Assembly: GCA_964589145.1 (NCBI GenBank)
Contig: CAZPSL010000213.1
Coordinates: 1 to 54,980 of the forward strand
Reading direction: 5' to 3'
From: an uncultured Anaerolineales bacterium
GTDB taxonomy: Bacteria; Chloroflexota; Anaerolineae; Anaerolineales; UBA11858
DNA: 54,980 nt
This document shows, piece by piece, positions 7,271 through 40,672 of the stretch. Within the stretch, counting starts at the first letter, position 1, and each line of letters starts with the position of its first letter. The position numbers and the translations under genes are program-made. The notes beneath the pieces were generated by a model. It saw only the letters and a list, made by a program, of their open reading frames with translations. It did no database searches and had not been told where the DNA came from.

Positions 7271-7476
7271 CGGATGCAGGCAAATGTTGCAGAAATTCCT
7301 ATGTATTTCCCTCGCCCCGCACACAAGACTGGCAGTCCTGGCAGGACTGCCAGTCTTCATTTGGCGAACAGGACAAGCATCGAGCACCCCGCCCCGCCGG
7401 GGGGAGGGCAGGGGAGGGGGGGAAAGGAAGCAGCGCCCGCATGACTGCCCAATTTCTACATCTTTTGCCTGCGCCC
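7271..7476. mobile_element. Complete modular MITE-like element (about 205 bp) carrying the 29-nt palindrome
   Basis: Left TIR cggatgcaggcaaatgttgcagaaat. Right TIR atttctacatcttttgcctgcgccc, the reverse complement of the left. The internal gactggcagtcctggcaggactgccagtc lies at 7327-7355. Confidence 0.8.
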
Positions 7477-9399: not shown

Positions 9400-11421
9400 T
9401 CAGTGCAGATATTTATCCATCCAGCGGCGGATGTGCTCCAGACGGACGATGCGGCGGTCGGTGCGCCCGACGCGGGAGAGGCCGTGCGGCTCGCCGGGGA
9501 AGCGCACCATCTCGGCATCCACCTTCGCCAGCACCTTGAGAGCCACAAAGGCCTGCTCACCCTGCTCGATGGGGCAGCGGTGGTCTTCCTCGCTGTGGAT
9601 GATCAGCGTGGGTGTGGTGGCCTCAGGCAGGTATTTGAGCGGCGAGTGATTCCAGGCGGTTTCGAGGTCCTCCAATGGCGGCGGGTCTCCCACCAGGGAG
9701 GTGAAGCGCCAGTTCATATCGCTTGTCCCCCACATGCTGATGAAATTGCTCACCACCCGCTGCGCCGCGGCGGCCTTGAAACGTCCGGTGTGCCCGATTA
9801 CCCACAGGGTCATGTAGCCGCCGTAACTGCCGCCGGTCACGCCCACCCGTTCCGGGTCAACGAAGTTTCTGGTCAGCACCAAATCCGTCCAGGACATCAG
9901 GTCGGCGTAATCGGCATCGCCCCAAACCCCGTAAATGAACTTGGTGTGCGCCTCGCCGTAGCCCTGTCCGCCGCGCGGGTTGCTGAAAAAGACGACATAA
10001 CCCTGCGCCGCCAGGTAGTAGAACTCGTGCATGAAAAAGTACCCGTACTGCGCCATCGGGCCGCCGTGGATTTCCAGGATGGCGGGGTATTTGCGGGATG
10101 GATCGAAGTCCGGCGGAGTGAGAATCCAGCCCTGGAGGGGGTTGCCATCCCGCCCGTGGAACCAGATTTCCTCCACCTCGCCGAGTTCCACCGCCCGAAG
10201 CCAGGGGTTGAGCGCCGTCAAAGGCGCGGAATCTCCGCCCGAAAGGTCAAGCCGGTAAATCTGCCCGGGGTCGGTCATCGTCGCGAAGAAGTAAGCCATC
10301 CGCTCCCCGGCGCGGTCGAGGCTGAAGCGGCCCGCGGCGCCTTTGTCGGGGGTGTGAACCTGCAAATCGCCTCCGTCGCGGCGGACGGAGTGGATGCGGC
10401 TGCTGCCGTGCCGCCCCACCGGGAAGTAGATGCGCTCCCCGCCGGGCGACCAGGTCGGCGGGGTGAGTTCGCCCGCGCCGCCCACCAGGTCGGTCATCAC
10501 CCCGGAGGAGACGTTGAAGTCAAATTCGGCGGTCAGGTTGCGCGCCGGGGCGGGTTCCTCCTGGGACGGCTCGAAGGGAACGACGTACAGGCTGGTGTTC
10601 TGCCACCAGGTACGGCGCAGTTCCGTGCCGTAGTAAGCAATCCAGCGCCCGTCCGGGGAGAAACGGGGGAACATCTTCGAACCGCCGTGGGCAGGCAGTT
10701 TACGGATTTCGCCGCCCGCCGCGGGGATGAGGTAAAACTCCTCGGAGTCGTACTCGATGTCGGGGTCGGGGGCGCGGTTGGAGGTGAATAAAATCCACTT
10801 TCCATCCGGCGACCAGACGGGATCGGTCTCATCGTAGATTTCGTGGTCGGTGAGTTGGGCGGCCTCGCCGCTTTCGGCGTCTACCGTCCAGATGTGCCAG
10901 CGCTCCTGCGGCAGGAAGCCTGCCCCGTCCAGTTTGTAGTTGATGCGTTTGTAGTGCCGGGCGACGATGCCGAGTTTCTTCTTTTGCTCGTCCTGCTCGC
11001 GTTCCAGGGCTTCGGCATCCTTTTTGCGGAACTGGAGGACGAGTTTGCGCCCGTCGGGTGACCACTCAAAGGCGGCGATCTCCCCTTTCAGGTCGGTGAG
11101 CGGGCGGGCTTCGCCGCCCCCGGCGGGGATGAGGTAGATTTGGGGCTGTTTCTCGTCCCCGCGGTTGGAGATGAAGGCGATCTGCCGTCCGTCCGGCGAC
11201 CAGCGGGGGCGGCCGTCGCGCTGATCGCCATAGGTGAACTGGCGCGGTTCGCCGCCCTCGGTGGAGACGATCCACAGGTTGCTGTATTTCTTTTCGGTTT
11301 TGCGGTCGACGCGCTGCCGGGCGTAAATCACCCATTTGCCATCGGGTGAAATTTCCAGGCCGGTGAGGAGTTGGAAGTTGTACAGGTCTTCGGCGGTGAT
11401 GGTGCGCTTTTCTGGGGACAT
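9400..11421 (-). CDS. S9 family serine peptidase (acylaminoacyl-peptidase / prolyl-oligopeptidase type) with N-terminal beta-propeller
   Basis: 673-aa ORF. It has repeated WSPDG propeller motifs and the catalytic GGSYGGYMT nucleophile elbow, with downstream Asp and His. Confidence 0.88.
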   Translation of the reverse strand: MSPEKRTITAEDLYNFQLLTGLEISPDGKWVIYARQRVDRKTEKKYSNLWIVSTEGGEPRQFTYGDQRDGRPRWSPDGRQIAFISNRGDEKQPQIYLIPAGGGEARPLTDLKGEIAAFEWSPDGRKLVLQFRKKDAEALEREQDEQKKKLGIVARHYKRINYKLDGAGFLPQERWHIWTVDAESGEAAQLTDHEIYDETDPVWSPDGKWILFTSNRAPDPDIEYDSEEFYLIPAAGGEIRKLPAHGGSKMFPRFSPDGRWIAYYGTELRRTWWQNTSLYVVPFEPSQEEPAPARNLTAEFDFNVSSGVMTDLVGGAGELTPPTWSPGGERIYFPVGRHGSSRIHSVRRDGGDLQVHTPDKGAAGRFSLDRAGERMAYFFATMTDPGQIYRLDLSGGDSAPLTALNPWLRAVELGEVEEIWFHGRDGNPLQGWILTPPDFDPSRKYPAILEIHGGPMAQYGYFFMHEFYYLAAQGYVVFFSNPRGGQGYGEAHTKFIYGVWGDADYADLMSWTDLVLTRNFVDPERVGVTGGSYGGYMTLWVIGHTGRFKAAAAQRVVSNFISMWGTSDMNWRFTSLVGDPPPLEDLETAWNHSPLKYLPEATTPTLIIHSEEDHRCPIEQGEQAFVALKVLAKVDAEMVRFPGEPHGLSRVGRTDRRIVRLEHIRRWMDKYLH

Positions 11422-11451
11422 GGCTGATCCGTAAATGATCCGTGATGGTTT

Positions 11452-11484
11452 AGGACTGGCAGTCCTGGCAGGACTGCCAGTCCT
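11452..11484. repeat. 29-nt palindrome family, stand-alone copy
   Basis: aggactggcagtcctg g caggactgccagtcct is perfect. It lies between the tnaA stop (11497) and the S9 peptidase start (11421). Confidence 0.8.
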
Positions 11485-11496
11485 TGGTTGAAGGGA

Positions 11497-12873
11497 CTAA
11501 AGCGGCTCGAACTGGGCGGTGAAGTGGCGCAGGAGTTCGGGGGCGTAGGTGATGCGGTAACCGCGCAGGTCGTCCGCCCGCTCCTTGATGCGCCTGAGGG
11601 TTTTGACAATGTAATCCATGTGCGCCTGGGTGTAAACCCGCCGCGGGATCGCCAGCCGCACCAGTTCCATCCTGGGGTGGACCATCTCGCCCGTGTCGGG
11701 GTCGGGATAGGCGAAGGCGACCGAGCCGAGTTCCACGCCGCGAATGGCGCCCTCGCGGTAGAGTTCCACCGCCAGCGCCTGACCGGGGTATTCGGCGGGC
11801 GGGATGTGCGGCAGAAGCCCTCCGGCGTCAATGTAAACCGCGTGCCCGCCCGCAGGCTCAATGACGGGGATACCGGCTTCGAGCAGTTTCTCCGCCAGGT
11901 ATTCGGTCTGCCCCAGGCGGTAGGCGAGGTAGCGCTCATCCAGGCCTTCGCGCAGGCCAACCGCCATCGCGTCCAGATCGCGCCCCGCCAGCCCGCCATA
12001 GGTGGGAAAGCCCTCCCGCAAAATCAACTCGTTCTGGATGTGCTGGAACATCGCTTCGTCGTTGGTCGCCAGAAAGCCGCCGATGTTGACGATGGCATCC
12101 TTCTTGGCGCTCATCGTGGCCCCGTCAGCGAGGGCGAAAATCTCACGCACGATTTCGGGCACGGATTTGTCGGCGTAACCGGGTTCGCGCAGTTTGATGA
12201 AGTAGGCATTCTCAGCGAAGCGGCAGGCGTCAATGTAGAAGGGGATGCCGTGTTCCTTGTAGATGGCGGCAACCCCGCGCAGGTTCTCCAGCGAGACGGG
12301 CTGCCCGCCCCCGGCGTTGTTGGTGATGGTGATCATCCCGAAGGGGATGTTCTCCGCCCCGACCTCGGCGATGAAGGCCCGCAGTTTGTCAAGGTCCATA
12401 TTGCCCTTGAAGGGGTGGCGGGATTGCGGGTCGAAGGCTTCGTCAATCACCAGGTTGGTGGGGCGTCCGCCGCGGGCGCGGATGTTTCCCTCGGTGGTGT
12501 CGAAGTGCATGTTCGAGGGCACGTACTGCCCCTCTTTGAGGGCAACCGCGCAAAGGATGTTCTCCGCCGCGCGCCCCTGATGGGTGGGCACAAAAAAACG
12601 GAAGCCGAAAATCTCCTGCATGGCTTCCGTCAACCGCTGGTAGGAACGCGCCCCGGCGTAGGATTCGTCCCCTTCCATGATGGCAGCCCACTGATGCTGG
12701 CTCATCGCCCCCGTGCCGGAATCGGTGAGCAAGTCAATGTAGATTTCATCCGCCCGCAGGCCGAAGACGTTGTACCCGGCGCGGCGCAGCGCGGCCTCGC
12801 GGGCATCGCGGTCAATCCGTTGGATGGGTTCCACCATTTTGATACGAAAGGGTTCAGGGGGGTATTCAATCAT
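11497..12873 (-). CDS. tnaA: Tryptophanase (beta-eliminating PLP lyase)
   Basis: ORF trimmed to the ATG at 12873 ([16 protein letters not shown]...). Blocks closer to TnaA than to tyrosine phenol-lyase: [42 protein letters not shown] (PLP Lys), [29 protein letters not shown] and LRHFTAQF. Confidence 0.85.
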
Positions 12874-13167
12874 GGATGTTTCTCCGGATGGTTCGGTTGA
12901 AAAGATGGCGCGCCAGGCTCCAAGACTTCCGCTGAAACGCAGAGAAAGCCCTGGATTCATTCCAATGGACCGCGATCCGGCAATTCCGCTGCAAATTTTA
13001 CCGGGATGTTGAAAACAGCACGACAACCCTTTGACTCAACAGCATACTCTCGCTGCGTCCGCATTGAGTTCCGCAGACCGGGATGCAACGCACGTATTCT
13101 AACGCAAAGGAAGGTAAACGCAAAGGGAAGAATTGCAAGGCTTTTGCAGGCTTTCATAATAGACCGG

Positions 13168-13237
13168 CGGATGCAAGCAAAAGATGTAGAACGATGGTGT
13201 TCCCCCTACTCAATTTCTACGACATTTGCCTGCGCCC
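13168..13237. mobile_element. Minimal (about 70 bp) MITE-like element consisting of TIRs only
   Basis: cggatgcaagcaaaagatgtagaa + cgatggtgttccccctactca + atttctacgacatttgcctgcgccc. Confidence 0.7.
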
Positions 13238-13278
13238 TGGACGGCCTCCGTGTAACGAAAATCACAGACTTGTGTTGT

Positions 13279-13295
13279 AAAATATGTCATATTTT
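13279..13295. promoter_or_regulatory. AT-only palindrome AAAATATG-T-CATATTTT; candidate operator or promoter element upstream of the membrane-protein cluster
   Basis: Perfect 8-1-8 inverted repeat embedded in ttgtaaaatatgtcatatttttatgg, about 65 nt upstream of the ATG at 13360. It stands out in an otherwise GC-rich genome. Confidence 0.4.
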
Positions 13296-13359
13296 TATGG
13301 CAGTTGTAACACTCGCTGTTTTTCACAAATCCACATTCACACCTTGGAGGAGAATTACC

Positions 13360-13986
13360 ATGACCATCTTTGATCGAATCATCCTTTTGCTGACCGGCCT
13401 CGCGGCCGCGTATCTTGTCTGGCGGTTTTGGGGGCGCTACTCAAAGGAGAAAAACCGCTACGATATTTACTACATGCTGGGCTTCGTGGTGCTGCTGGTC
13501 TCCGGCGTGCTGCTGATCTTCGGCGGATGGGGACTGCTCGACTCTCCGTATGTGCTGACCGTGGCAACGCTGATCCCCCTGGGCATTTCGATGGGGCTGA
13601 TGCACCAGTTTATGCCCAAATATGCGAAAGCGTATTCCTGGTTCTCGGTGGTGGGGTTGCTCGCAATCGCCGTTACCAGCATTGGGGATATGTCATTCAA
13701 GAGCATTGCCGTGCCGCTCTTCCACGGGGTTGCGGGGTTGATCATCTTCGCCCTGCCGCTTTACCTTTGCTTCGTGACGAAAACTGCCCCCCGAGGCTTT
13801 GGCGCGGTGGGCGTGGGCGGTTTGCTGATCGGCATCGGCGGAATGGCTTTAGCCTTTTACAAGGCCGGAAAACCACTGTTCGGTATCTTCACCGGGGAAT
13901 TCATCTTGATGATCCTGGCACCGCTGTTGCTGCTGATGACTCTTGCCTACGCCTGGGGCTTTGTGAAAGATATTCAGAGCAGATAA
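13360..13986 (+). CDS. Hypothetical about-6-TM membrane protein, paralogue A
   Basis: ORF 13006..13986 trimmed to the ATG at 13360 (RBS ggaggag). It aligns along its full length with the product of 18816..19421. Shared blocks: DRI(I/L)LL(L/I)TGL(A/L)AAY, LDSP(Y/W)V, HGVAGL(I/T)IF(A/L)LPL, VG(V/I)GG.LIG(I/V)GG..LAF.KAGKP. Confidence 0.75.
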   Translation: MTIFDRIILLLTGLAAAYLVWRFWGRYSKEKNRYDIYYMLGFVVLLVSGVLLIFGGWGLLDSPYVLTVATLIPLGISMGLMHQFMPKYAKAYSWFSVVGLLAIAVTSIGDMSFKSIAVPLFHGVAGLIIFALPLYLCFVTKTAPRGFGAVGVGGLLIGIGGMALAFYKAGKPLFGIFTGEFILMILAPLLLLMTLAYAWGFVKDIQSR

Positions 13987-14052
13987 GATTCGCACCGTGC
14001 GGTAAGTGTGCCCGTACCACCACAGAAGAACTCATCAAGAATACTGCGGCAG

Positions 14053-14091
14053 GGGGTGTTTTTTGCGGGCATGACCTGCAAAAAACACCCC
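14053..14091 (+). terminator. Strong 14-bp hairpin (ggggtgttttttgc / gcaaaaaacacccc) between the first two membrane genes
   Basis: Perfect inverted repeat whose arms contain the U/A run themselves. It could act as a bidirectional terminator or attenuator. Confidence 0.5.
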
Positions 14092-14158
14092 GTTGCTGAC
14101 TTTCGGGCAGGTTCTTGGGCCTTTGTTCCCGCCTTACCATAACGGAGGAATATCCAAA

Positions 14159-15013
14159 ATGAAGAATTCGCGTACCATCATGATCGTTATTGCCGTCCTG
14201 GTAGGCCTGATGTTGGTTTTCATGGCATCCGGTATGATTGACGCTACGCAAGACAAGTTACTGAACAAAATGACCGAAGGCGCCACAATCGAGATGGGGG
14301 CGGTTCCCTCGTTGCGTATGTACGTCAGTTCAACCTGGCGTGGTGTTGAGGTAGTTGCCGGAATTGTGCTGCTCGTTACCGCTTATGCACTCTACCTTGA
14401 TAAAAAGTGGGCGTTTCCGGTTGCTATGACCAGTTTTGCTGCATTGCCGATTGGCAGTTTCTACATCAGCCTGGCCTATATGGTGAAGACCCGTGCTTAT
14501 GCACCCGCCTTCACCACCTTTACTGTCGGCTTGCTGGCCTTTTGGGCATTCATCTTTCTGGAGAAGAAAGGGAAGGAAGCATGGACCTTGTTCGTTCCCC
14601 TGACGCTAATGGGAATGATCGGTACGCAGGCTTTCTCGTTTGCCGAACACGGGCTGCGCGGGCTGTTGCCCGATAAAACTGCATCACTCATCAACCCGGC
14701 AGTTGCAATTTTGCGTTATTCCGGGCCAATTATGGCAATCACCGTTTTCCTGCTTTTTGTCGCCATTTACCAACTGGCGGCAGGCAAGGAGGCAGGCTGG
14801 TGGGTGGCTCTGGTGGCCGGTCTCAGCATGGCTGTTGGCGCATTCCCAGTTCACTTTGCCCGCCCTAAGGCATCAATGGCTTTGCCGGGCACTGCGGAGC
14901 CGTCTATCTTCACATCCACGTACTTCCTTGGCGGTATGCTGGGCGTGCTTCTGGTAGTTGTCCTTTTGATTCCTTTCTTCAAGAATCAACTTATGGACAC
15001 AGGCACGGAGTGA
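14159..15013 (+). CDS. Hypothetical multi-pass membrane protein (284 aa)
   Basis: ORF 14093..15013 trimmed to the ATG at 14159 (RBS ggagg). Roughly 8 hydrophobic segments. No family recognised. Confidence 0.7.
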   Translation: MKNSRTIMIVIAVLVGLMLVFMASGMIDATQDKLLNKMTEGATIEMGAVPSLRMYVSSTWRGVEVVAGIVLLVTAYALYLDKKWAFPVAMTSFAALPIGSFYISLAYMVKTRAYAPAFTTFTVGLLAFWAFIFLEKKGKEAWTLFVPLTLMGMIGTQAFSFAEHGLRGLLPDKTASLINPAVAILRYSGPIMAITVFLLFVAIYQLAAGKEAGWWVALVAGLSMAVGAFPVHFARPKASMALPGTAEPSIFTSTYFLGGMLGVLLVVVLLIPFFKNQLMDTGTE

Positions 15014-15020
15014 TTTACTC

Positions 15021-15104
15021 GGGTGCAGGCAAAAATGCAGAAACCGGGCAGCCATCTGAGCGGATGGGGGAAACGCAAATACTCTGCAACATTTGCCCGC
15101 CTCC
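15021..15104. mobile_element. Short (84 bp) MITE-like element with 7/8-matching 8-bp flanking duplication
   Basis: Ends are gggtgcaggcaaaaatgcagaaa ... ctctgcaacatttgcccgcctcc. The flanks are atttactc (15013-15020, overlapping the TGA of the upstream gene) and atttgctc (15105-15112). Confidence 0.7.
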
Positions 15105-15267
15105 ATTTGCTCTTTAATAAAGACAATTTATCTGCGCTGTGTTATCTTTCCTTTTACAATGGAAGTGATGACAATTGGCTCGGAGCGAGTTGTGCTTTCC
15201 GCAGATTGGGAACAGGCAAGACCCCAATCCGCCAGTTGATAACATAATTTTTTAGGAGCAGTTACCT

Positions 15268-16809
15268 ATGCAATCTCTATCCAAACGTCTCGATTATCTC
15301 TTTCGCTCCACCCGAGGCCTGACGCTGATGGCTATCGCCGCGGTCGCCATCGTGACGGCACTCTGGGGCACGCTCTCCGGTCCGATGGTTGAGTGGGGGG
15401 TCCGGGACATCACCGTCAACCTGTTACATATGGACCTGATCCAGGCGGAGCGCGAGGGGCGCGTGATTATGCTCTACCACACCATTGCCATGACCATCAT
15501 CGCAATTGAAGTGTACTTCATCACCGAAATTGTCCCGATGAAACGCAACGAGCAGGTGATGATCAACGGCACCATTACGGTAGGGTACCTGACTGCGCTC
15601 ATCTTCGGCCTGTTGTTTGCCTATTTTGGGCACAACTTCACCTTTCACGGCTTGTTCCTTGTGGGGCAGTCGCTGATCTACTTTTCAGGCCTTTTGTTGA
15701 TGGCGGCGCTCTGGCCGTGGAAAAAAGAGTACCGCCTGCCGCCGGATTCGCCATATGCCCATCTCAAGAACGGTATTGATATGGAGCGGGCAGCGTTCTT
15801 TGTAATGGCAGGCGCTACGCTGCTTTCGGCCATGTGGGGCGCAGTGACCGGCTCATTCTGGTCTAATGGGCATGAAACCTTTCTGGCAGAAGACCTGATC
15901 CGCATTCCGCACAAAACCGCGCTGGAACACGCCATCATCGGGCATCTCCACATCATGCTCTCACTGGTGGCTGTAGGGATCACCCTGATCGTCGGCAAAT
16001 GGCTGGATTTCAAAGGCAAACTGCACTTCTGGGCAATGGTCTCGATGATTTTCGGCTCAATTGTGCTGACCGCCGGTGCACTTTCTATTGTCTGGCTGGA
16101 ATGGGCACATACCATCATCTACGTGGGTGCCGTCTTTGTGATGATGGCAGCCCTGCTTTATGTGATTTACTCGTGGGACAAACTGATCCACGACCGGCTC
16201 GCGGAACAGGGCATCGAAAAGGCCAATTTCTTCCAGAAAATCGCCGCTTTGCTGCACGATCCGCTCAAGTTCGGCTCCGGCTGGCAGATGGTCTTTATGA
16301 ACTTTACGGTCAGCGGTGTAGGGATTTTCATGGCAATCAAACTGGAAGACATCTTCCGGGTTTGGACACAGCGTGAGGAACGCATCACCCTGACCGGGCA
16401 CTGGCATATTCTGGCAGCCCTGATCGCCACCATCATCCTGCTCTACTACCTGGATTTGTCCGGCGTCAAGGGGAAAGCCCGCCAGTTCGCAGGTTGGGTC
16501 ATTATCATCGGGTCCGACATCGCCTTTGCCGGTGCAACCCTTTTCTCCATGAAACGGCTCTTTGTAGACGATGTACACCAGCAGCCGGTTGTGAGTACCA
16601 CAATGTTGATGATCGACATCGGGCTGGGAGTCGTCCTGGTGGCGCTGGCAATCTTCATGCTCTGGCGTCTGATCGACCTCTTCAAGGGAGATGGCGTCTG
16701 GAGCCGGGAATTCGACAACGAACGAGAAACCGTTGCAAAGCGGGAACTGGAGGAGCAAAAGCGCAGACTGAAAGAACTCCAGGAAACCTTGAAGGAGGTG
16801 TCCGAATGA
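15268..16809 (+). CDS. Hypothetical 12-TM membrane protein with periodic His/HxH motifs and a C-terminal coiled-coil tail
   Basis: 513-aa ORF with about 12 hydrophobic helices. Three related motifs: EREGRVIMLYH(71)T, LEHAIIGH(226)LH(228)IM and REERITLTGH(378)WH(380)IL, spaced about 152-155 residues apart. Tail: ERETVAKRELEEQKRRLKELQETLKEVSE. Confidence 0.75.
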   Translation: MQSLSKRLDYLFRSTRGLTLMAIAAVAIVTALWGTLSGPMVEWGVRDITVNLLHMDLIQAEREGRVIMLYHTIAMTIIAIEVYFITEIVPMKRNEQVMINGTITVGYLTALIFGLLFAYFGHNFTFHGLFLVGQSLIYFSGLLLMAALWPWKKEYRLPPDSPYAHLKNGIDMERAAFFVMAGATLLSAMWGAVTGSFWSNGHETFLAEDLIRIPHKTALEHAIIGHLHIMLSLVAVGITLIVGKWLDFKGKLHFWAMVSMIFGSIVLTAGALSIVWLEWAHTIIYVGAVFVMMAALLYVIYSWDKLIHDRLAEQGIEKANFFQKIAALLHDPLKFGSGWQMVFMNFTVSGVGIFMAIKLEDIFRVWTQREERITLTGHWHILAALIATIILLYYLDLSGVKGKARQFAGWVIIIGSDIAFAGATLFSMKRLFVDDVHQQPVVSTTMLMIDIGLGVVLVALAIFMLWRLIDLFKGDGVWSREFDNERETVAKRELEEQKRRLKELQETLKEVSE

Positions 16810-17792
16810 AACGCCTGATTCTCATTGCTGCCTTGTTGATTTTGTCCATCACTGCCATAGCCTGTTCATCTGGCGGTAGTGCGGGAGCAGTTAATCCACC
16901 CGCCCTGGACACCGGTATTGACCCCGAAGCCTGGGTGAGTATCCCTGCCGGAGAATTTCCTTATGGGATGCACGACCATATGACCCAGGTAGATGAGTAC
17001 GAAATCATGGTGACAGATGTCACCGTAGAGCAATACGCCAGGTTCCTGAACGAAGCCCTGGCTGCCGGCGCTATTTCCGTTGGTGCCGTAGATGTTGATG
17101 CCGGTTACAACGTCGAAGACGACGAACTGGTGGCCCCCCGCACCGTGGAAGGCGTGCACGGCTTTTATCCCGGTGATCGCTATGATGGTTACAAGCATGA
17201 GATGCAAATTCTGGAAGGAGAAAAACTGTACATTCCCCTGAACAGTGACGGCATTCGCATTTCCTTCAATGGTACCGAATTTACCTACCAACCGGAATAC
17301 GCCAACCACCCCATGACAATGGTTTCCTGGTACGGCGCAAACGCTTATTGTCAATACTACGACTGGCGGCTGCCGCGGGATGCCGAATGGGAAAAGGCCG
17401 CCCGCGGCACCGAAGTGGACGCCGAAGGGCACGGACGCCCCTTCCCCTGGGGTGAAGAGATTATGCCCAACAACGCCAATTATTATTCCTCGTTTGATCT
17501 CTTCGAGAAAATATCCGACAAACTGGGCAACACCACCCCGGTCGGGTTCTACAACGGGAAAACTTACGAGGGGTATGAAACCCTGGATTCCCCCAGCCCT
17601 TACGGTCTTTACGACATGGCCGGTAACGTCTGGCAGTGGGTTGGGGATGACTTCCCGAACATTCACTACCGCTACATGCGCGGCGGCAGTTACTACTCTT
17701 ACGAAGTGGATCTGCGCGTTTGGAAAATCAACACCGCCGGGCCGGAACACTACGCCCCGGATACCGGCTTCCGCTGTGCGCGGGATCACTGA
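16806..17792 (+). CDS. FGE/SUMF1-fold (formylglycine-generating-enzyme family) lipoprotein
   Basis: The ATG at 16806 overlaps the upstream stop (ATGA). Signal peptide MKRLILIAALLILSITAIAC. Family-typical blocks: HPMTMVSWYGANAYC, RLPRDAEWEKAARG, YDMAGNVWQWV, MRGGSYY and C-terminal GFRCARD. Confidence 0.85.
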   Translation: MKRLILIAALLILSITAIACSSGGSAGAVNPPALDTGIDPEAWVSIPAGEFPYGMHDHMTQVDEYEIMVTDVTVEQYARFLNEALAAGAISVGAVDVDAGYNVEDDELVAPRTVEGVHGFYPGDRYDGYKHEMQILEGEKLYIPLNSDGIRISFNGTEFTYQPEYANHPMTMVSWYGANAYCQYYDWRLPRDAEWEKAARGTEVDAEGHGRPFPWGEEIMPNNANYYSSFDLFEKISDKLGNTTPVGFYNGKTYEGYETLDSPSPYGLYDMAGNVWQWVGDDFPNIHYRYMRGGSYYSYEVDLRVWKINTAGPEHYAPDTGFRCARDH

Positions 17793-17874
17793 TATTCAAG
17801 CGGGTCATCCGGGGAACCTCGAATGACCCGCGTTCGTCCCATCTGCACGATTTTTGATCTTCCCCGGAGATAGT

Positions 17875-18729
17875 ATGAATATCATCAAAGCCAAATTCCG
17901 CATCTACTGGCCGCTTATCAAATCCTACCAGACTGCCCTGCTGCTGGTTACTGGCCTGACAGGCTACATGAGTGCCCGTTGTCCGGTCTTTAACATCTGG
18001 ACGCTGCTGGGCGTAGCGGGGAGTCTCTTCCTGGCAATTAGCGGTTCGACGGTGCTCAATATGTGGTACGACCGCGATATTGACGCCAAAATGCCCCGCA
18101 CCATGCACCGGCCGCTTCCCGCTGGTCAAATCACCCCAAAAGAAACCCTGCGGATGGGATTGATTCTCTCGGCATTAGGCGTCCTTTGGGCGTTGGCAAT
18201 TGACCCGCTTTACGGTGTAATCGTCTTCGCCGGGCTGTTCTTTGACGTGATCGTCTACACCATCTGGCTCAAACGCCGCACCGCCTGGAGCATCGTCTGG
18301 GGCGGCATCTCCGGGGCAATGCCGATCATGGCAGGGCGTGCATTGGGAATCGGTTACATTGACTGGGTGGGAATCGCCCTGGGGCTGGGCATCCTCTTCT
18401 GGATTCCGACCCATATCCTCACCTTCAGCATGCGCTACTACGATGACTACAAGGCTGCGGGGGTCCCCACCTTCCCGTCCACCTACGGGTTCGCGGCCAC
18501 CCGCGCGATCATCGCCCTCTCCAGCGTGCTGGCCGCGGTTGCGATGGGGGCAGCAGCCTACGGCATCGGCATGACCGTAGGCTACCTGCGGTTGATGATC
18601 GTACTGTCAGGCGGCCTGCTGGTGCTGGCAATTATCACGATGGTCAAACCATCCGAGCGTGCCAACTTTGGATTGTTCAAGTACGCCTCGCTTTACATGC
18701 TTGGCGCAATGCTGCTGATGACCCTGTAA
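17875..18729 (+). CDS. ctaB: Protoheme IX farnesyltransferase (heme O synthase)
   Basis: ORF trimmed to the ATG at 17875 (RBS ggaga). UbiA-fold protein with the CtaB/CyoE signature NMWYDRDIDAKMPRTMHRPLP. Confidence 0.88.
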   Translation: MNIIKAKFRIYWPLIKSYQTALLLVTGLTGYMSARCPVFNIWTLLGVAGSLFLAISGSTVLNMWYDRDIDAKMPRTMHRPLPAGQITPKETLRMGLILSALGVLWALAIDPLYGVIVFAGLFFDVIVYTIWLKRRTAWSIVWGGISGAMPIMAGRALGIGYIDWVGIALGLGILFWIPTHILTFSMRYYDDYKAAGVPTFPSTYGFAATRAIIALSSVLAAVAMGAAAYGIGMTVGYLRLMIVLSGGLLVLAIITMVKPSERANFGLFKYASLYMLGAMLLMTL

Positions 18730-18751
18730 CACACACCGCCAATCACACTTT

Positions 18752-18792
18752 AAGCCGCAAACAACACCCGCCGTTTTGTTTGCGGCTTTTTT
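18752..18792 (+). terminator. Rho-independent terminator after ctaB
   Basis: aagccgcaaaca ..loop.. tgtttgcggctt followed by tttt. Confidence 0.8.
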
Positions 18793-18815
18793 GAGAATAG
18801 ATAGGAGAAAACACC

Positions 18816-19421
18816 ATGAAAAAGATTTCCGTTCTCGACCGAATTTTACTCCTGATCACCGGTTTGCTGGCTGCCTACCAGATTGTTGTGATGGAAGGGA
18901 ACAGCCCCCTGGCAACCTGGTCGTACACCATTGCCTTTGGAGTGCTGCTGGTTGCCGGATTGCTGATCATCATCATGGGTTTTGAAGTGCTCGACAGCCC
19001 CTGGGTGGTCATCGTCTCAACCATCATCCCGTTAAGCCTCTCCCTGGGGCTGGTCGCCGACTACTACCAGGCCTGGACAACCCCTTACCTGATTTTTGTA
19101 GTCGTCGGCTTCCTGGCAATCGTTTTCACCCGTCTCGCCAAACCGGAGACCAAACTGGCAACCTTCACCCTGGCCTTCGTCCACGGGGTTGCCGGGCTGA
19201 CCATCTTCCTGCTGCCGCTCTTCCTGGCTTTTGGCGGCACCCCTACGATGGGCTTCGCCCTGGTCGGCATTGGCGGCGCGCTGATTGGCGTCGGCGGGTT
19301 GCTGCTGGCCTTCCTCAAAGCCGGAAAACCTATCCTGCCCCAAAATACCATCCTGACCGTTCTCCCCGGCCTGCTGTTGCTGATGACCATCTGTTTTGTC
19401 GCCGGGTTCCACTTCGCATAA
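18816..19421 (+). CDS. Hypothetical about-6-TM membrane protein, paralogue B
   Basis: 201-aa ORF with RBS aggag. Collinear similarity to 13360..13986. Confidence 0.75.
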   Translation: MKKISVLDRILLLITGLLAAYQIVVMEGNSPLATWSYTIAFGVLLVAGLLIIIMGFEVLDSPWVVIVSTIIPLSLSLGLVADYYQAWTTPYLIFVVVGFLAIVFTRLAKPETKLATFTLAFVHGVAGLTIFLLPLFLAFGGTPTMGFALVGIGGALIGVGGLLLAFLKAGKPILPQNTILTVLPGLLLLMTICFVAGFHFA

Positions 19422-19489
19422 TTCGAGACCGGGGATAAAAAGATTGCAGCATTGATGTAAAACGGAAATTGCAGGGCCAGGCTGTCTGT

Positions 19490-19526
19490 GGGGGTATTTT
19501 TCGTGCGCAGCGCGAAAAATACCCCC
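19490..19526. repeat. Near-perfect 37-nt palindrome of the GGTATTTTTCG...CGAAAAATACC family
   Basis: gggggtatttttcg tgcgcagcg cgaaaaataccccc. Related copies lie at 4-35 and 39726-39762. Confidence 0.7.
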
Positions 19527-19608
19527 GCAACGCTCATTTTCGGAAGAACGCCAACATACCAGGCAGCAATCTTCACGGGCACAATACCATTCCACCACTT
19601 CCATCAAC

Positions 19609-20067
19609 ATGACATCTCTACTAGAGTTCCTTCAATCCTTCCGCGGCAAGATGAAAACCAGCCGCTACAAAATCTGGCTGCGCGCTTTCCTGCTGTTCCA
19701 GTTCTCGGTGCTGTTCGGGTTTTACCTCATCCGCGATATTGCTAACGGCTACTTCACCTGGACCTGGGTGGTAATCACCATTATCCTGTTTGTACCGGTC
19801 GGTCTTCTCCTGAGCCGCATTGTCCCCATGCAGCCGGATCACGAGAAAAAGGCTGTCACTCTTTCCATTGACAAAGTTTACCTGGTCCTGATCTGGGTGC
19901 TGGTGATCGCCAAACTGGTCGCCGGGCATATCCCCGAAGCCACCGTCATCGCCGACATCATCATGTGCGCCATTCTGGGAATCATGAGCGGGCGCATCGG
20001 CGGCATCGGGCTGCGGGTACGCTCCCTCAAACAAAAACACCAATTCATCAACAACGATGACGAATAA
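19609..20067 (+). CDS. Small about-4-TM membrane protein (weak resemblance to CcdC/DUF1453-type proteins)
   Basis: 152-aa ORF with a hydrophobic profile. The family assignment is from memory only and is uncertain. Confidence 0.55.
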   Translation: MTSLLEFLQSFRGKMKTSRYKIWLRAFLLFQFSVLFGFYLIRDIANGYFTWTWVVITIILFVPVGLLLSRIVPMQPDHEKKAVTLSIDKVYLVLIWVLVIAKLVAGHIPEATVIADIIMCAILGIMSGRIGGIGLRVRSLKQKHQFINNDDE

Positions 20068-20093
20068 GCATCATCGTCTCTACAAGGATAAAA

Positions 20094-20510
20094 ATGACTA
20101 ACAAACAATCTGAACGCATCTTCTTCATCGCCGGAGCATTGCTGGCCGGGCTGGCAGTCGCCGTTGGCTCTTTCAGCGCGCACGGCGCGGTCAAGATGCT
20201 CTCTGAGGACGCCGTCCGTTGGCTCGCCAAAGGCGCCCGTTATGAGATGTACCACGCCCTGGCCTTGTTTCCGGTTGTCTGGGCACTGACCTACTGGCCC
20301 CAACAGGCAAAAACGCTCAAGATCGCCGGATGGCTTTTCATTGCCGGGACCGCGCTCTTCGCGGGGAGTCTCTACCTGATGGCCTTCACCGGAATCAGCC
20401 TGGGATACGTCACCCCGGCCGGCGGCATCTCCTACATGCTGGGCTGGATCGCGCTCGCCGTCGCCGCCTGGAAGGGTGGAGCCGGACTCTCCCCGTCGGA
20501 ACGAGAATAA
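20094..20510 (+). CDS. DUF423 (YgdD/TMEM256-like) membrane protein
   Basis: 138-aa ORF with GSFSAHG...YEMYHALAL...AG.LF..G...FSGSLY-like blocks typical of DUF423. Confidence 0.8.
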   Translation: MTNKQSERIFFIAGALLAGLAVAVGSFSAHGAVKMLSEDAVRWLAKGARYEMYHALALFPVVWALTYWPQQAKTLKIAGWLFIAGTALFAGSLYLMAFTGISLGYVTPAGGISYMLGWIALAVAAWKGGAGLSPSERE

Positions 20511-20514
20511 AGCG

Positions 20515-20697
20515 GGGTGCAGGCAAATATTGTAGAAATTCCTGTGTGTTTCCCTCGCCCCGCACACAAGACTGGCAGTCCTGGCAGGACTGCCAGTCTT
20601 CATTTGGCGAACAGGACAGGCACCGAACACCCCGCCTCGCCGGGGGGAAGGGCAGAGACATGCGGCTGCCCGATTTCTACATCTTTTGCTTGCACCC
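20515..20697. mobile_element. Complete modular MITE-like element (183 bp) with a perfect 8-bp target-site duplication
   Basis: Ends are gggtgcaggcaaatattgtagaaat ... atttctacatcttttgcttgcaccc. The element is flanked by ataaagcg at 20507-20514 (which includes the TAA stop of the DUF423 gene) and at 20698-20705. It carries the 29-nt palindrome at 20570-20598. Confidence 0.88.
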
Positions 20698-21915: not shown

Positions 21916-22161
21916 ATTCGGACATTATACACTTTCCCTGCACCCCGTCCTGTGGTTTAATCGAGAACGCGTACACAAAAGTCGCAGCGATTGAGCCGCC
22001 GAGTGGAAACTGCCCTGTCTGCCCTCACCCCCAGCCCCTCTCCCTTAGGGAGAGGGGAGTCCGAGCATATGCGAGGACGGGGTGAGGGAAACACAAGATC
22101 TTCTCCATCCCTTGCGCCCGTCAAAACCGGCAGCACCATCTCCCACGAAAACGGAGTCTCC

Positions 22162-23463: not shown

Positions 23464-23568
23464 CCGCCGCCCCCCATCGCGCTGAGCGGAGACGGCGTCA
23501 GCCGTCGCAGTCGAAGCGCACGCACCCAGTGGCGCCGCGCTTACGCCATCCGACACGATGCCAACCGG

Positions 23569-23609
23569 CAACCTGTAACCTTCAACCTGCAACCTGAAAC
23601 CTTCCAACC
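23569..23609. repeat. CAACCTN heptamer array immediately upstream of wecB
   Basis: caacctgtaaccttcaacctgcaacctgaaaccttccaacc ends 5 nt before the ATG at 23615. Confidence 0.8.
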
Positions 23610-23614: not shown

Positions 23615-24724
23615 ATGCCCCCTCTCAAAATCCTCACCATCTTCGGCACACGGCCTGAAGCCGTAAAAATGGCGCCCGTTGTTCGGGAACTCGCCCGCAC
23701 CCCCGGGGTGGAAGCGCGCGTTTGCGTCACCGCGCAGCACCGCGAAATGCTCGACCAGGTACTCAACCTGTTCGGCATCACCCCCGACATTGACCTCGAC
23801 CTGATGCGCCCCGGTCAATCGCTGGCGGAACTGACCGCCCGCGTTTTCACTCACCTCGACCCCGTGCTGAGCGATTTTCAGCCCGATTGGGTGCTCGTCC
23901 AGGGCGATACCACCACGGTGATGGCCTCCGCCCTGCTGGCCTACTACCACCGCATCAGGGTCGGGCACGTGGAAGCGGGGCTGCGCACCGGCGACAAGTT
24001 CCAGCCCTTCCCGGAGGAGATCAACCGCCGGGTGGCGGGCGTGGTCGCCGACCTGCACTTCGCTCCCACCGAATGGGCGCGGCAGAACCTCCTGCGCGAA
24101 AACGTCCCCGACGAGCAGATCATCGTCACCGGCAACACCGTGATTGACGCCCTGCGCTGGGTCACGCAGCAGCCGTTCGATTTCGCAGCCTTCAACTTCC
24201 AGCCTGCCGCCTTCAACCGTTTGGTGCTGGTCACCGCGCACCGCCGCGAGAACTTCGGCAAACCCCTCGAAAACATTTGCGAGGCCATCCGCACCCTCGC
24301 CGACCATTACGCCGGGGAGGTGCAGTTCGTCTATCCCGTGCATCTCAACCCCAACGTGCAGGAGCCGGTTCACCGTATCCTGGGGAACCAGCCCCACGTC
24401 ACCCTGCTGCCCCCGCTGGATTACCTGCCGCTCGTCCACCTGATGAAGCGCGCTACCCTGGTGCTGACCGATTCCGGCGGGATTCAGGAAGAAGCCCCCG
24501 GGCTGGGAATCCCGACCCTGGTGCTGCGCAACACCACCGAGCGGCCGGAGGGCGTGGAGGCTGGCACCCTCAAACTGGTCGGCACCGACCCCGAAGTGAT
24601 CGTCCGCGAAGCCCGCCGTCTGCTTGATGACCCCGCCGCGCACGCCGCCATGTCCGGAGCGAAGAACCCCTACGGAGACGGTCACGCTGCCGAGCGGATT
24701 GTATCGGCACTGCTGAACCTGTAA
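23615..24724 (+). CDS. wecB: UDP-N-acetylglucosamine 2-epimerase (non-hydrolysing)
   Basis: 369-aa ORF with [35 protein letters not shown] and TDSGG.QEEAP blocks. Confidence 0.92.
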
Positions 24725-24767
24725 CCTTCAACTTTCAACCTTCAACCTTCAACTTTCAACATCCAAC
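24715..24767. repeat. CAAC(C/T)TT heptamer array bridging the wecB stop and the next start codon
   Basis: gaacctgtaaccttcaactttcaaccttcaaccttcaactttcaacatccaac. It begins in the last codons of wecB and ends at the ATG at 24768. Confidence 0.85.
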
Positions 24768-25262
24768 ATGGATTTCATCACCCGCCTTGCTTACCTGCGC
24801 CGGAAACCACTCATCGGCAAACTGGCTTACTACGCGCTCAAACTCCTGGGCGTGGAACTGCCGCGTTCCGTGCCCGTCGGCGAGGGGCTGGAAATCGCCC
24901 ACGGCGGCTTCGGGATTGTGATCCACTCCAGGGCGCGCATCGGGAAACGGGTCAAACTCTACCCCGGAGTCACCCTCGGGCGGGCGGACATCTACCGGCC
25001 CGCGTCCGAATCGCGCTTCGAGGGCATCGTCATCGAAGACGATGTGATCCTCGCCCCGGGGTGCAAAATCCTGTGCAAGGAGGGCGTGCTGCGCGTCGGC
25101 CGCGGCACGGTGATTGGCGCAAACGCCGTCCTGCTGCAATCCACCGGTGAATGGGAGATTTGGGCGGGAGTCCCCGCGCGGCGAGTTGGGAGAATCAACG
25201 AAGCGGCGGGTCAGCGAGTCAGCGAATCAGCGAACCAACCCGCTGACTCGCCGAATCGCTGA
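24768..25262 (+). CDS. Left-handed beta-helix (hexapeptide-repeat) acyl/acetyltransferase, serine-acetyltransferase-like
   Basis: 164-aa ORF with hexapeptide-like repeats (IGKRVKLYPGVTLG, IEDDVILAPGCKI, VGRGTVIGANAVL). The C-terminal 17 residues are encoded by an octamer repeat array. Confidence 0.7.
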   Translation: MDFITRLAYLRRKPLIGKLAYYALKLLGVELPRSVPVGEGLEIAHGGFGIVIHSRARIGKRVKLYPGVTLGRADIYRPASESRFEGIVIEDDVILAPGCKILCKEGVLRVGRGTVIGANAVLLQSTGEWEIWAGVPARRVGRINEAAGQRVSESANQPADSPNR

Positions 25263-25283: not shown

Positions 25284-26408
25284 ATGCCCCGCATCGCTCT
25301 CATCCCTCAGGTTCATGGCGTCGGTGGAATGGTCTCGTTCCGGGCCAAATTCACCGCCGCACTGGAAGCGCGCGGCATCGAAATTGTGCCGCTCCCGCGC
25401 CTCACGGCGCGCGATTCCCTGCTCATCATCGGCGGCACGCGTGACCTGCCCGCCCTGTGGCGCGCCAAACGCCGCGGCGTGCGGATTGTCCAGCGCCTGG
25501 ACGGGATGAACTGGCTGCACCGAAAACTGCCCACCGGCGTGCGTCACTACCTGCGGGCGGAGTACGGCAACCTGATTTTGCGGCTCATCCGCAATCGCTT
25601 TGCCGACCACATCGTTTACCAAAGCGAATTTTCCCGCCGCTGGTGGGAGCGCGTCCACGGCGCAGCCCCCGTGCCCCATTCCATCGTTTACAACGCGGTT
25701 GACCTCAGCATCTACACCCCTAACCCCCTAACTCCTAACTCCTTATCCCCCAACCTTCAACCTTCAACTTTCAACCCTCACCGCATCCTCCTCGTCGAAG
25801 GCTCCCTCACCGGCGGCTACGAACTCGGCCTGGAGACCGCCATCCGCCTCGTGGAACGCCTGAACACCCTTCACCGTGCCGACCTCGCTTCCATCGCGCT
25901 GACCGGAGACGAAAACGGTGACAGCCGCCAAAACCGAAGCGCCCGCGCCCCGGATTTCCCCGCCGAACTCGTCATTGCCGGGCGCGTGCCGGACTCCGTC
26001 AAGGAACGCTGGGCGCGGGAGACGGACATCCCCATCACCTGGGCGGGACTCCTGCCCCCGGAACGCATCCCCGACCTCGACCGCTCCGCGCACCTGCTCT
26101 ACGCGGGCGACATCAACGCCGCCTGCCCCAACGCCGTGATCGAAGCCCTGGCGTGCGGCTTGCCTGTGCTCGCCTTCGACACCGGCGCGCTCCCCGAACT
26201 GGTCACCGGCGACGCGGGCCGCATTGTCCCCTACGGCGGCAACCCCTGGAACCTCGATCCGCCCGATGTGGACGCCCTCGCCCGTGCCGCGCTCGAAATT
26301 CTGCGCGGCCAGCCCCGTTTCCGCCGCGCCGCCCGCGCCCGTGCCGAAGCCGCCTTTGCGCTGGACACGATGGTGGACGGGTATTTGCAGACGCTGGGAG
26401 TTTTTTGA
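25284..26408 (+). CDS. GT4-family (GT-B fold) glycosyltransferase with a repeat-encoded interdomain linker
   Basis: 374-aa ORF. The N-terminal Glyco_trans_4-like half and the C-terminal half (EALACGLPVLAFDTGALPELV) are joined by TPNPLTPNSLSPNLQPSTFNPH, which is encoded by a heptamer array. Confidence 0.75.
   Translation: MPRIALIPQVHGVGGMVSFRAKFTAALEARGIEIVPLPRLTARDSLLIIGGTRDLPALWRAKRRGVRIVQRLDGMNWLHRKLPTGVRHYLRAEYGNLILRLIRNRFADHIVYQSEFSRRWWERVHGAAPVPHSIVYNAVDLSIYTPNPLTPNSLSPNLQPSTFNPHRILLVEGSLTGGYELGLETAIRLVERLNTLHRADLASIALTGDENGDSRQNRSARAPDFPAELVIAGRVPDSVKERWARETDIPITWAGLLPPERIPDLDRSAHLLYAGDINAACPNAVIEALACGLPVLAFDTGALPELVTGDAGRIVPYGGNPWNLDPPDVDALARAALEILRGQPRFRRAARARAEAAFALDTMVDGYLQTLGVF
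25717..25781. repeat. Heptamer array (CCTAACY / CAACCTT units) lying in frame inside the GT4 ORF
   Basis: cccctaaccccctaactcctaactccttatcccccaaccttcaaccttcaactttcaaccctcac. Confidence 0.85.
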
Positions 26409-29000: not shown

Positions 29001-29368
29001 AAAGTGCAGGCAAATGGTGCAGAAAAATTGTCATCTACGAACAAACCATGTCGTTTTGGAACCCCATCCCCCCCTATGTCTCCTCTCACCCTTCGGGCAG
29101 GCTTCGCACTCCCCAAGGAAGGGGGGATTGGACTTTTCGGTGCGTGTGCGGCGCACACACACCTGACGAACACGCCCCTCCCCAAAATTTCCGTTTGGTT
29201 CCCCTCTTCCACAGGGAGAGGGGAGAGGGTAGGGGGAGGGGTCGGGGGTGGGGTGTTCGGTGCTTGTCCTGTTCGCAAAATGAAGACTGGCAGTCCTGGC
29301 AGGACTGCCAGTCTTGTGTGCGGGGCGAGGGAAACACATAGGAATTTCTACAACATTTGCCTGCACCC
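29001..29368. mobile_element. Largest (368 bp) composite MITE-like element with a perfect 8-bp target-site duplication
   Basis: Ends are aaagtgcaggcaaatggtgcagaaa ... tttctacaacatttgcctgcaccc. It is flanked by ctacagag at 28993-29000 and 29369-29376. It contains all hairpin modules, including the 29-nt palindrome at 29285-29313. Confidence 0.88.
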
Positions 29369-40506: not shown

Positions 40507-40672
40507 GGGTGTAAGCAAAAGGCGTAGGACGCCGGTGTTCCCCCCTCCTCGCCCTCCCAAAATTTTCCGCTTTGGTTCCCCTCTCCCACAGAGAGAGGGG
40601 TTAGGGGTGAGGGAAAACTTACCCAAGGCAAGAGCAAACGGCACTCAATTTCTGCGTCTTTTGCTTGCCTCC
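40507..40672. mobile_element. MITE-like element (166 bp, diverged TIRs) in the divergent LOG / methyltransferase spacer
   Basis: Ends are gggtgtaagcaaaaggcgtaggac ... atttctgcgtcttttgcttgcctcc. Internal ccctctcccacagagagagggg module. Confidence 0.65.

Follow-up and report, generated by a model that had tools for sequence, protein, structure and literature searches.

A conserved gene module linking a predicted heme O synthase with a putative oxidase-like membrane protein in an uncultured Anaerolineales bacterium

The contig CAZPSL010000213.1 of an uncultured Anaerolineales bacterium (GenBank assembly GCA_964589145.1) was analysed from position 1 to 54,980, and this whole stretch is referred to as the window. 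Between positions 13360 and 20510 it carries eight open reading frames (ORFs) on the + strand, designated A, B, C, D, ctaB (E), F, G and H. They include a predicted heme O synthase gene, ctaB, and the gene of a membrane protein with 12 transmembrane (TM) helices, C, whose likeness to heme-copper oxidases (HCOs) is the subject of this study. A previous reading of the window from its letters alone, in the following called the sequence-only reading, had described a same-strand block of eight ORFs, and all of them were found.

The first gene of the block, A (13360-13986), encodes a 208-aa polytopic membrane protein with one conserved histidine in the motif FHGVAGL and is a paralogue of F (45% identity). 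It is followed by a hairpin at 14053-14091 (+ strand) with 17-nt arms that are 94% complementary, one of two related copies in the window. B (14159-15013) is preceded by a GGAGG ribosome-binding site and encodes a membrane protein of 284 aa. The product of C (15268-16809) comprises 513 aa with 12 TM helices and a C-terminal cytoplasmic coiled coil and represents the putative heme-binding core of the system. C stops and D starts within the same four nucleotides, ATGA, preceded by a GGAGG ribosome-binding site; this overlap, already noted in the sequence-only reading, was seen directly in the sequence, and C and D are translationally coupled through it.

D (16806-17792) encodes an extracytoplasmic lipoprotein with a signal peptide and a lipobox (...ITAIAC) and a non-catalytic fold of the formylglycine-generating enzyme (FGE)/SUMF type. 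The assignment as an FGE-fold lipoprotein, made earlier from the letters, was borne out by a match to FGE-sulfatase PF03781 over the full-length domain (2.7e-36). The best solved match of D is pFGE/SUMF2 (1y4j), which we take to be an inactive paralogue. D lacks the catalytic cysteine pair of FGE: the region reads RGGSYYSYEVDLRVW, at a site where catalytic FGE presumably reads GGSYMCHRSYCYRYRC, and the sole FGE chain aligned to D is a Cys-to-Ser variant with ...CHRSYSYRYRC at this position. The sequence-only reading had drawn an argument for copper from the FGE fold. Because D lacks the two Cu-binding catalytic cysteines, this argument fails.

The coding region of ctaB extends from 17854 (TTG) or 17875 (ATG) to 18729, the ATG at 17875 being the more likely start. 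Its product scores 221.6 bits against TIGR01473 (cut-off 210.3), is 33% identical to Escherichia coli CyoE and carries the diagnostic motif NMWYDRDIDAKMPRTMHRP (NxxxDRDIDxKMxRTxxRP). By these sequence features ctaB (cyoE) is predicted to encode heme O synthase, as proposed before. A terminator-like hairpin follows at 18752-18792 (+ strand; arms 18752-18767 and 18773-18788, then a T run), so that both this terminator and the hairpin behind the first gene lie where the sequence-only reading had placed them. The next gene, F (18816-19421), encodes a 201-aa membrane protein and is the fourth conserved member of the module described below. Because F directly follows or overlaps ctaB in most relatives, the hairpin may attenuate rather than end the transcription unit.

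The AlphaFold2 (AF2) model of F has seven helices at a pLDDT of 89.9, and the six helices counted earlier in F and A are accordingly to be corrected to seven in F and, by paralogy, in A. Compared to the PDB, the model of F matched generic 7-TM bundles only (G protein-coupled receptors (GPCRs), rhodopsins, ACER3), with no likeness to subunit III, subunit IV or CtaM; more than 4000 homologues of F were found, all labelled hypothetical. A second copy of the hairpin lies between F and G at 19487-19529 (+ strand). The block ends with two facultative neighbours, G (19609-20067), encoding a small membrane protein of 152 aa, and H (20094-20510), encoding a DUF423 membrane protein (PF04241; 1.2e-21, 77.2 bits, cut-off 25 in the Pfam scan). 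Pfam and NCBIfam scans of the eight block proteins returned no curated family match for A, B, C, F and G, and an RNA family scan returned no RNA family in the block.

Fold and conserved residues of protein C

Protein C was modelled with AF2 on 31 homologues that are 71-82% identical to the protein of the window. The model has 12 TM helices at a pLDDT of 76.8 and a pTM of 0.83, with low confidence in three loops. In a Foldseek comparison to the PDB, the top match was subunit I of Thermus thermophilus ba3 (TMq 0.52 over 523 columns, prob 1.00). Subunit I of M. tuberculosis aa3 reached a TMq of 0.46, and every fold other than HCO, including MATE, MurJ, complex I antiporter-like subunits and GPCRs, stayed at or below 0.26. 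In this predicted model, built from a shallow alignment, C has the twelve-helix core fold of HCO subunit I (CyoB, CtaD, CbaA, NorB; PF00115) with both termini cytoplasmic as in that subunit, which is the best and only convincing structural match for C. A transporter, the alternative that the sequence-only reading had raised for C, is not what the model resembles: transporter folds gave TM-scores of 0.12-0.21, and the likeness is to HCO subunit I alone. The histidines whose conservation had been in question proved to be family-wide, seven in number.

Residue conservation was counted over 33 sequences of the C family with less than 65% pairwise identity. At least 31 of the 33 retain H71, H127, H226, H228, H281, H378, H380, R65, Y70, Y119, E208 and E371 (32 of 33 for H71 and likewise for the motif H378-W-H380); R212, W379 and M230 are conserved in most members. 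Y70-H71 is located on TM2, H127 on TM4, H226-L-H228-x-M230 on TM6, H281 at the start of TM8, and H378-W-H380 on TM10. By the positive-inside rule, the modelled helices have the N-terminus of C in the cytoplasm and all conserved histidines in the membrane's outer half. These histidines are conserved down to 23% identity. The C family, which is ~70% identical across phyla, is under strong constraint.

More than 3,000 close homologues of C were obtained (E up to 0.001), each with a label that is either hypothetical or erroneous; those among the 120 matches listed are 71-83% identical, and the named ones belong mostly to Anaerolineae. An exhaustive HMMER search yielded ~300 C-family clusters at 50% identity, including full-length relatives that are 23-43% identical. 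Two clusters bear the label 'MFS family permease', which is a label of the source database and lacks Pfam support. COX15-CtaA, NnrS (PF05940) and transporter families gave no Pfam match at E up to 10 in 23 members. A further homology search for cultured hosts of the C family returned solely proteins from metagenome-assembled genomes (MAGs) and metagenomes. One homologue (P0477) is encoded on a single contig of 4,403,799 bp of an Anaerolineales MAG, apparently a closed genome.

Profile-profile comparison by hhalign placed the C family on A-type or mixed HCO subunit I profiles in one collinear alignment of ~360-460 columns. H226, H281, H378 and H380 of C are paired with H284, H333, H419 and H421 of CyoB, respectively, and K429-R430 with R481-R482. 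In CyoB we take H284 and H333 to be ligands of CuB, H419 to be the ligand of heme o3, H421 to be the ligand of heme b and R481-R482 to be the propionate-binding pair. Thus, four of the seven family-wide histidines of C fall on CuB or heme ligands of CyoB in the collinear alignment, and the pairing of H378/H380 with H419/H421 was obtained in every run against HCO subunit I profiles. C and HCO subunit I share the H-x-H on TM10, the histidine on TM6 and the histidine at the junction of TM7 and TM8, and in the alignment the propionate-binding arginines fall on a basic pair of C in loop 11-12. The global score was 24-29 (P ~2-3e-5, probability 45-55%) and the local score 28-31 (P ~0.01-0.02); with one partner reversed, the scores were 9 and 18, respectively. 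In forty block-permuted nulls, the global score was 7.1 ± 4.8 and at most 23.1, compared to 24.3 for the real pair. Homology of C to HCOs is probable, not proven, when the fold, the collinear match of ligands and the genomic linkage to heme O (described below) are considered jointly.

Gene order in relatives of C

The species representatives of GTDB (~186,000) were scanned for relatives of C, which are encoded in 383 stretches; 80 of these 383 loci were retrieved for neighbourhood counts, and neighbour order was counted in loci with enough contig. D lies directly after C in 77/77 loci, ctaB follows D on the same strand in 66/70, and F follows ctaB in 57/66. A homologue of A (A or its paralogue F) occurs within ~1 kb upstream of C in half of the loci (33/66). 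C-D-ctaB-F, often with A ahead, is therefore a conserved module. Whether gene order is kept in relatives had been left as a check by the sequence-only reading; it is kept, and the adjacency to ctaB extends across several phyla. Of the 80 loci, 36 to 40 have B-like ORFs upstream, frequently more than one, and B is a member of a multi-copy paralogue family that is loosely linked to the module. Homologues of G and of the DUF423 protein H cluster with the module in 13/80 and 14/80 loci, respectively. Because they are only loosely associated, B, G and the DUF423 protein are not established subunits.

The 80 loci belong to Anaerolineales, Caldilineales, Ardenticatenaceae, Promineifilum and Brevefilum and also to MAGs labelled Calditrichota, Melioribacter, Spirochaetales and Bacteroidota. 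A B. fermentans MAG (L032) carries A-C-D-ctaB-F-G. In an uncultured Caldithrix MAG (L086), the whole C-D-ctaB-F module occurs twice in tandem, at 9411-13443 and 15450-19524, with an A-like gene between the copies. Recurrent neighbours of the module are genes for a Crp/Fnr regulator (41/80), a NapH-like Fer4_5 membrane polyferredoxin (29/80) and DUF4405 proteins (10/80), and a DUF1858 gene is present in individual loci. No copper-related family recurs in 8 or more of the 80 loci; one relative has a nearby CopA/HMA pair. Canonical COX1 is absent within ±10 kb of all 80 loci. The sequence-only reading had also stated that the window itself is devoid of oxidase genes. This was confirmed for subunit I, for which a hidden Markov model (HMM) found nothing in the 55-kb window, and for plausible ORFs with a CxxCH motif, of which there are none; cyd and the genes of subunits II and III (ctaC/ctaE) were not specifically searched.

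One homologue of C, a protein of 785 aa (P0122), is a natural fusion of C to an FGE domain, in which an extra TM helix keeps the FGE domain outside the membrane. This topology fits D as an outer-face subunit, and the tie between the 12-TM protein and the lipoprotein that had been suspected from their overlap gains a direct counterpart in this single fusion. FGE-fold proteins without the catalytic cysteine pair are known as pFGE/SUMF2, PorK/GldK and NirV-type proteins, and D is a lipoprotein like PorK/GldK. In contrast to all of these, D has an obligatory partner in a 12-TM heme-type protein, to which it is fused in one case, and it is missing from the distant branches of the family.

These distant branches were represented by 79 metagenomic loci with relatives ~25-50% identical to a query from the distant subgroup (A4). 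No FGE gene was found in 49 distant loci, and ctaB lies directly downstream of the C-like gene in 19 of them; C-ctaB pairs persist at 25-35% identity. Since distant relatives keep ctaB without D, the link between C and ctaB is ancient and the FGE lipoprotein a clade-specific addition. Four distant loci (L132, L136, L139 and L142) share the order of a subunit II-like protein lacking CuA, with STEYSGPRHPEM in place of the CuA motif, followed by canonical COX1, the C-like gene, a DUF438-hemerythrin-PAS10 gene and a DUF166 gene. This order looks like a separate conserved cluster related to O2 or NO. A further locus (L131) has the C-like, DUF438-hemerythrin-PAS10 and DUF166 genes, with no COX1 detected. 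Another distant locus (L120, 5243-12748, GC 37%) encodes, in this order, a C-like protein, an unknown protein of 268 aa, an FAD_binding_4 (GlcD-like) protein, a CCG + 4Fe-4S (GlcF-/HdrD-like) protein, CtaB and an HTH_10 regulator, which hints at a dehydrogenase feeding electrons to a C-type protein.

Proposed complex and alternative explanations

We give about even odds to the reading that an undescribed and highly divergent oxidase-like redox complex, which probably scavenges O2 or NO, has C as its heme-O-binding core. From the observed fold resemblance, residue conservation, synteny and fusion, we infer the following arrangement of hemes, metal, subunits, electron donor and substrate. C would keep the 12-helix architecture of HCO subunit I, with a sequence so diverged that sequence models no longer recognise it. 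If HCOs are taken as a guide, one high-spin and one low-spin heme would be bound by H378 and H380 of TM10, and H71 on TM2 would provide the other axial ligand of the low-spin one. H226 (TM6) and H281 (start of TM8) would be the two histidines of a reduced non-heme metal site, possibly together with H228, M230, H127 or E208, and R65, R212 and K429/R430 at the outer face may hold the heme propionates. The CtaB of the operon would supply farnesylated heme O to C, as CyoE does for cytochrome bo3, so that at least one of the two hemes bound by C would be heme O from CtaB.

D is proposed to cap the outer face in the place of subunit II, without a redox centre of its own. In that case, electrons would have to come from quinol or from membrane Fe-S or cytochrome b partners, for which the NapH-like and DUF4405 proteins are candidates. 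F and A may be 7-TM accessory subunits that flank the core. The complex would probably reduce O2, NO or a similar small oxidant and so scavenge or detoxify it, in hosts that are mostly anaerobic or microaerobic. O2 or NO appears to be the most plausible substrate in view of this lifestyle and of the neighbouring genes for Crp/Fnr, hemerythrin-PAS and DUF1858 proteins. The sequence-only reading had proposed an undescribed heme-O and possibly copper-containing membrane complex. The heme-O part is supported by the HCO-like model, the conserved histidines, the linkage to ctaB and the fusion; the copper part loses ground with the failed FGE argument, the presence of only two CuB-type histidines, the missing cross-linked tyrosine and the lack of a recurrent copper-handling gene.

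Known systems offer several parallels. HCOs are encoded together with heme O synthase, as in cyoABCDE, and in both cyoABCDE and the ctaA-ctaB-ctaCDEF genes of Bacillus the heme O synthase gene lies in the transcription unit of its user. The C module resembles them in this respect, but its presumed client is no recognisable oxidase, and the block contains no gene for CtaA, subunit II or subunit III. Where HCOs have subunits II and III, the partners of C are the FGE-fold lipoprotein and 7-TM proteins. C itself differs from HCO subunit I in having two of the three CuB histidines, no cross-linked tyrosine and a TM2 histidine out of register, and in its additional invariant H127, H228 and M230 and the C-terminal cytoplasmic coiled coil. 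With quinol-dependent nitric oxide reductase (qNOR) and with oxidases or nitric oxide reductases (NORs) lacking CuA, the module shares an outer-face partner devoid of a redox cofactor, which makes quinol a plausible point of electron entry. The Crp/Fnr-type regulator, hemerythrin, PAS and DUF1858 genes nearby belong to the same comparison. NORs keep three metal-site histidines and glutamates and are recognised by COX1 models, whereas COX1 models fail to recognise the C family.

A number of observations weigh against C as the core of an oxidase-like complex. Pfam COX1 did not match C at E up to 0.1 and, even with E raised to 10, matched none of 23 members of the family, and phmmer and profile searches against PDB sequences returned no oxidase and noise only (core-binding factor, claudin). 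The hhalign probabilities are low (2-55%), 2 of the 40 block-permuted nulls (22.8 ± 3.1) exceed the real local score of 28.0, which lies ~1.7 standard deviations above their mean, and a five-sequence profile of B-family oxidases only gave no signal. H71 lies on the same helix as H106 of CyoB, ~7 residues off in the alignment, and the position of the third CuB histidine (H334 of CyoB) is occupied by Thr, Lys, Tyr or another residue in the C family. The cross-linked tyrosine is absent, the residue four past H226 being M230, a Met in most members; Y285 of C is not conserved and mostly Asn. H127 and H228 are without counterpart in HCOs, and the model has a pLDDT of 42-64 at the TM9-10 loop that includes H378/H380 (residues 351-390). 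No cupredoxin or cytochrome c subunit was detected in the block by Pfam and NCBIfam scans. Canonical complex IV genes were found in most Anaerolineae MAGs of one study (PMC11748557), and other Anaerolineae encode A-family oxidases as well as bd oxidase (PMC4653796; PMC11748557). The genome of Ca. Brevefilum fermentans CAMBI-1 was described as lacking cytochrome oxidase and electron-transport complexes (PMC5481317). Since these electron-transport complexes are reported missing, the electron donor in Brevefilum is left unexplained. In turn, because CAMBI-1 is reported to lack an oxidase (PMC5481317) and the B. fermentans MAG carries the module, a canonical client is not a general explanation for ctaB.

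The main rival to an oxidase-like role is the modification or handling of heme O by C, as by CtaA. C would then be a CtaA analogue, a heme insertase or a chaperone that serves a client enzyme and not a terminal oxidoreductase; we consider this unlikely. The order of C followed by ctaB mirrors that of ctaA-ctaB. On a plasmid of Thermomicrobium roseum (NC_011961, 1649-5849), the genes of subunits II and I are followed by a 600-aa CtaA-CtaB fusion that is annotated as heme o synthase and has the CtaA-like half at its N-terminus, and in the four distant loci the C-like gene occupies the same position directly after canonical COX1. CtaA of B. subtilis has four histidines on TM2, TM4, TM6 and TM8. 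The histidines of C on these helices (H71, H127, H226, H281) recall this pattern, and global hhalign pairs three of the four. However, the alignment scores at null level against a CtaA profile of 3 sequences (global 8.2, P 0.11, local match of 127 columns). CtaA/COX15 has 8 helices compared to the 12 of C, the lack of a Pfam COX15-CtaA match reported above extends to the fold, with no CtaA among the top 50 Foldseek matches, and the invariant HWH of TM10 has no CtaA counterpart. In the model, the histidines that would be paired lie 8-9 residues apart in membrane depth, which would fit a bis-His four-helix bundle poorly, and Brevefilum is reported to lack an oxidase as client (PMC5481317).

Alternatively, C may be a new His-rich protein unrelated to oxidases, such as a transporter or sensor of Cu, Fe or Zn, with the oxidase-like model being an artefact of the shallow alignment and the CtaB homologue prenylating a substrate other than heme. 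To this explanation we assign a similarly small likelihood. It accords with the absence of COX1 membership by sequence, the marginal local profile score and a model that was built from 31 sequences 71-82% identical and has three loops of low confidence; moreover, ctaB exceeds the TIGR01473 cut-off by only 11 bits, and the HLHxM motif of TM6 could be a metal site. Against it stand the low TM-scores of transporter folds (MATE, MurJ and others), a collinear alignment that meets four ligand histidines and the arginine pair in the correct helices, and a global score above all 40 permuted nulls. In addition, ctaB has the motif specific for heme O synthase and passes the equivalog cut-off, and the neighbourhoods are rich in redox and O2/NO-sensing genes and not in genes of metal homeostasis. 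The last explanation, that the client of ctaB is a canonical cox or cyo oxidase from another part of the genome and that the neighbours of ctaB are unrelated membrane proteins, draws on the many Anaerolineae with A-family and bd oxidases (PMC4653796; PMC11748557), but is highly improbable and, as chance neighbourhood, effectively excluded by synteny: the C-D-ctaB-F order is found in ~94% of 70 loci (Chloroflexota, Calditrichota, Ignavibacteria-like, Spirochaetales and Bacteroidota MAGs), C and D are translationally coupled, C-ctaB pairs persist among distant relatives, no COX1 lies nearby, and the module is tandemly duplicated in the Caldithrix MAG.

If C is indeed the core of an oxidase-like complex, a more far-reaching version can be put forward, which we regard as tentative and rather doubtful as a whole: C would found an unrecognised, deeply divergent HCO branch, a stand-alone enzyme with heme O, a non-heme metal site reduced to two His, possibly with Met/His, an FGE-fold lipoprotein partner and no cupredoxin or cytochrome subunit. 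Through it, Brevefilum, many Anaerolineae and other presumed strict fermenters would be able to reduce O2 or NO at their membranes. C might preserve an early or alternative solution to the chemistry of the oxidase active site. What would be new is an oxidase-superfamily-like heme protein with a different set of ligands and partners. In full-text literature searches, neither the C family nor an oxidase-like protein with an FGE-fold partner nor a ctaB cluster of this type was found described, and a multi-omics paper on Melioribacter and its supplements mention neither heme O synthase nor an FGE neighbour.

Heme-copper oxidoreductases are among the most closely catalogued superfamilies, and genomic calls of "aerobe" and "anaerobe" rest on recognising them. 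The C family is invisible to Pfam and NCBIfam, yet it occurs in at least 383 of ~186,000 species representatives and in thousands of metagenomic proteins. It would explain the retention of "orphan" heme O synthases in anaerobes, and if C is an oxidase-like enzyme, an additional O2- or NO-consuming activity would be present in the abundant Anaerolineae of digesters and sediments. The scaffold of an oxidase with a site of two His and Met/His and an FGE-fold partner would offer a new test case for the evolution of the binuclear centre; if C is a CtaA analogue, a new route of heme O modification or delivery would be at hand. Misleading pathway calls may also stem from the C family, with cyoE being scored as a part of cytochrome o oxidase. 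In salt-marsh Anaerolineae MAGs, 'cytochrome o ubiquinol oxidase' comprised the complex IV genes that recruited most DNA reads (PMC11748557), and this signal may in part be the cyoE/ctaB of the module scored as oxidase.

Base composition and repeats of the window

The block has a GC content of 0.52-0.57, compared to 0.60-0.69 in the flanks, in agreement with its earlier description as AT-richer than its surroundings. The same holds for third codon positions (0.61-0.76 in the block and 0.82-0.86 in the flanks). Since the difference persists at these positions, the AT-richness is not explained by amino-acid composition alone. The sequence-only reading had placed two copies of a miniature inverted-repeat transposable element (MITE) at gene boundaries within the block. 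What lies at these boundaries is instead the pair of related hairpins described above (14053-14091 and 19487-19529), of which the window has no further copy, and a MITE-like element brackets the block. The pattern of its terminal inverted repeat (TIR), GTGCAGGCAAANNNTGNAGAAA, has 11 matches in the window, with 0 expected. A solo TIR end lies upstream of the block at 13214-13235 (- strand), a complete element closes the block at 20515-20697 (unstranded) and contains a palindrome of the repetitive extragenic palindromic (REP) type at 20568-20600, and a degenerate end is located near 15025. The heme-O block is thus bracketed by one solo end and one full copy, with a third-position GC ~0.1 below that of its neighbours.

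Altogether, the MITE-like element is present in four complete copies of ~180-360 bp and several solo ends, and its sites in the window are 112, 4475, 7274-7474, 13214-13235, ~15025, 20515-20697, 29004-29366 and 52212-52395. The REP-like palindrome, which reads GACTGGCAGTCCTGGCAGGACTGCCAGTC in the best-conserved copies, occurs 8 times (3639, 7327, 11454, 20570, 29285, 31656, 34228 and 35239), at gene ends where checked and in some cases within the MITE-like element. Two more repeat families of ~65-75 nt were found, one of which has a CCCCTCTCCC...GGGAGAGGGG hairpin beside AACCAAAGCGGAAATTTTGGG. The first is located at 171-241, 22010-22080, 29163-29236, 40540-40613, 46595-46665 and 52265-52338, the second at 4533-4596, 29063-29126 and 39648-39711. 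The window is unusually rich in small repeats, which also include short arrays of 7-nt units (CAACCTT/CAACTTT or the complement GTTGAAG/GTTGAAA) at 1709-1818, 23556-23605, 24695-24772, 25731-25794 and 50672-50813.

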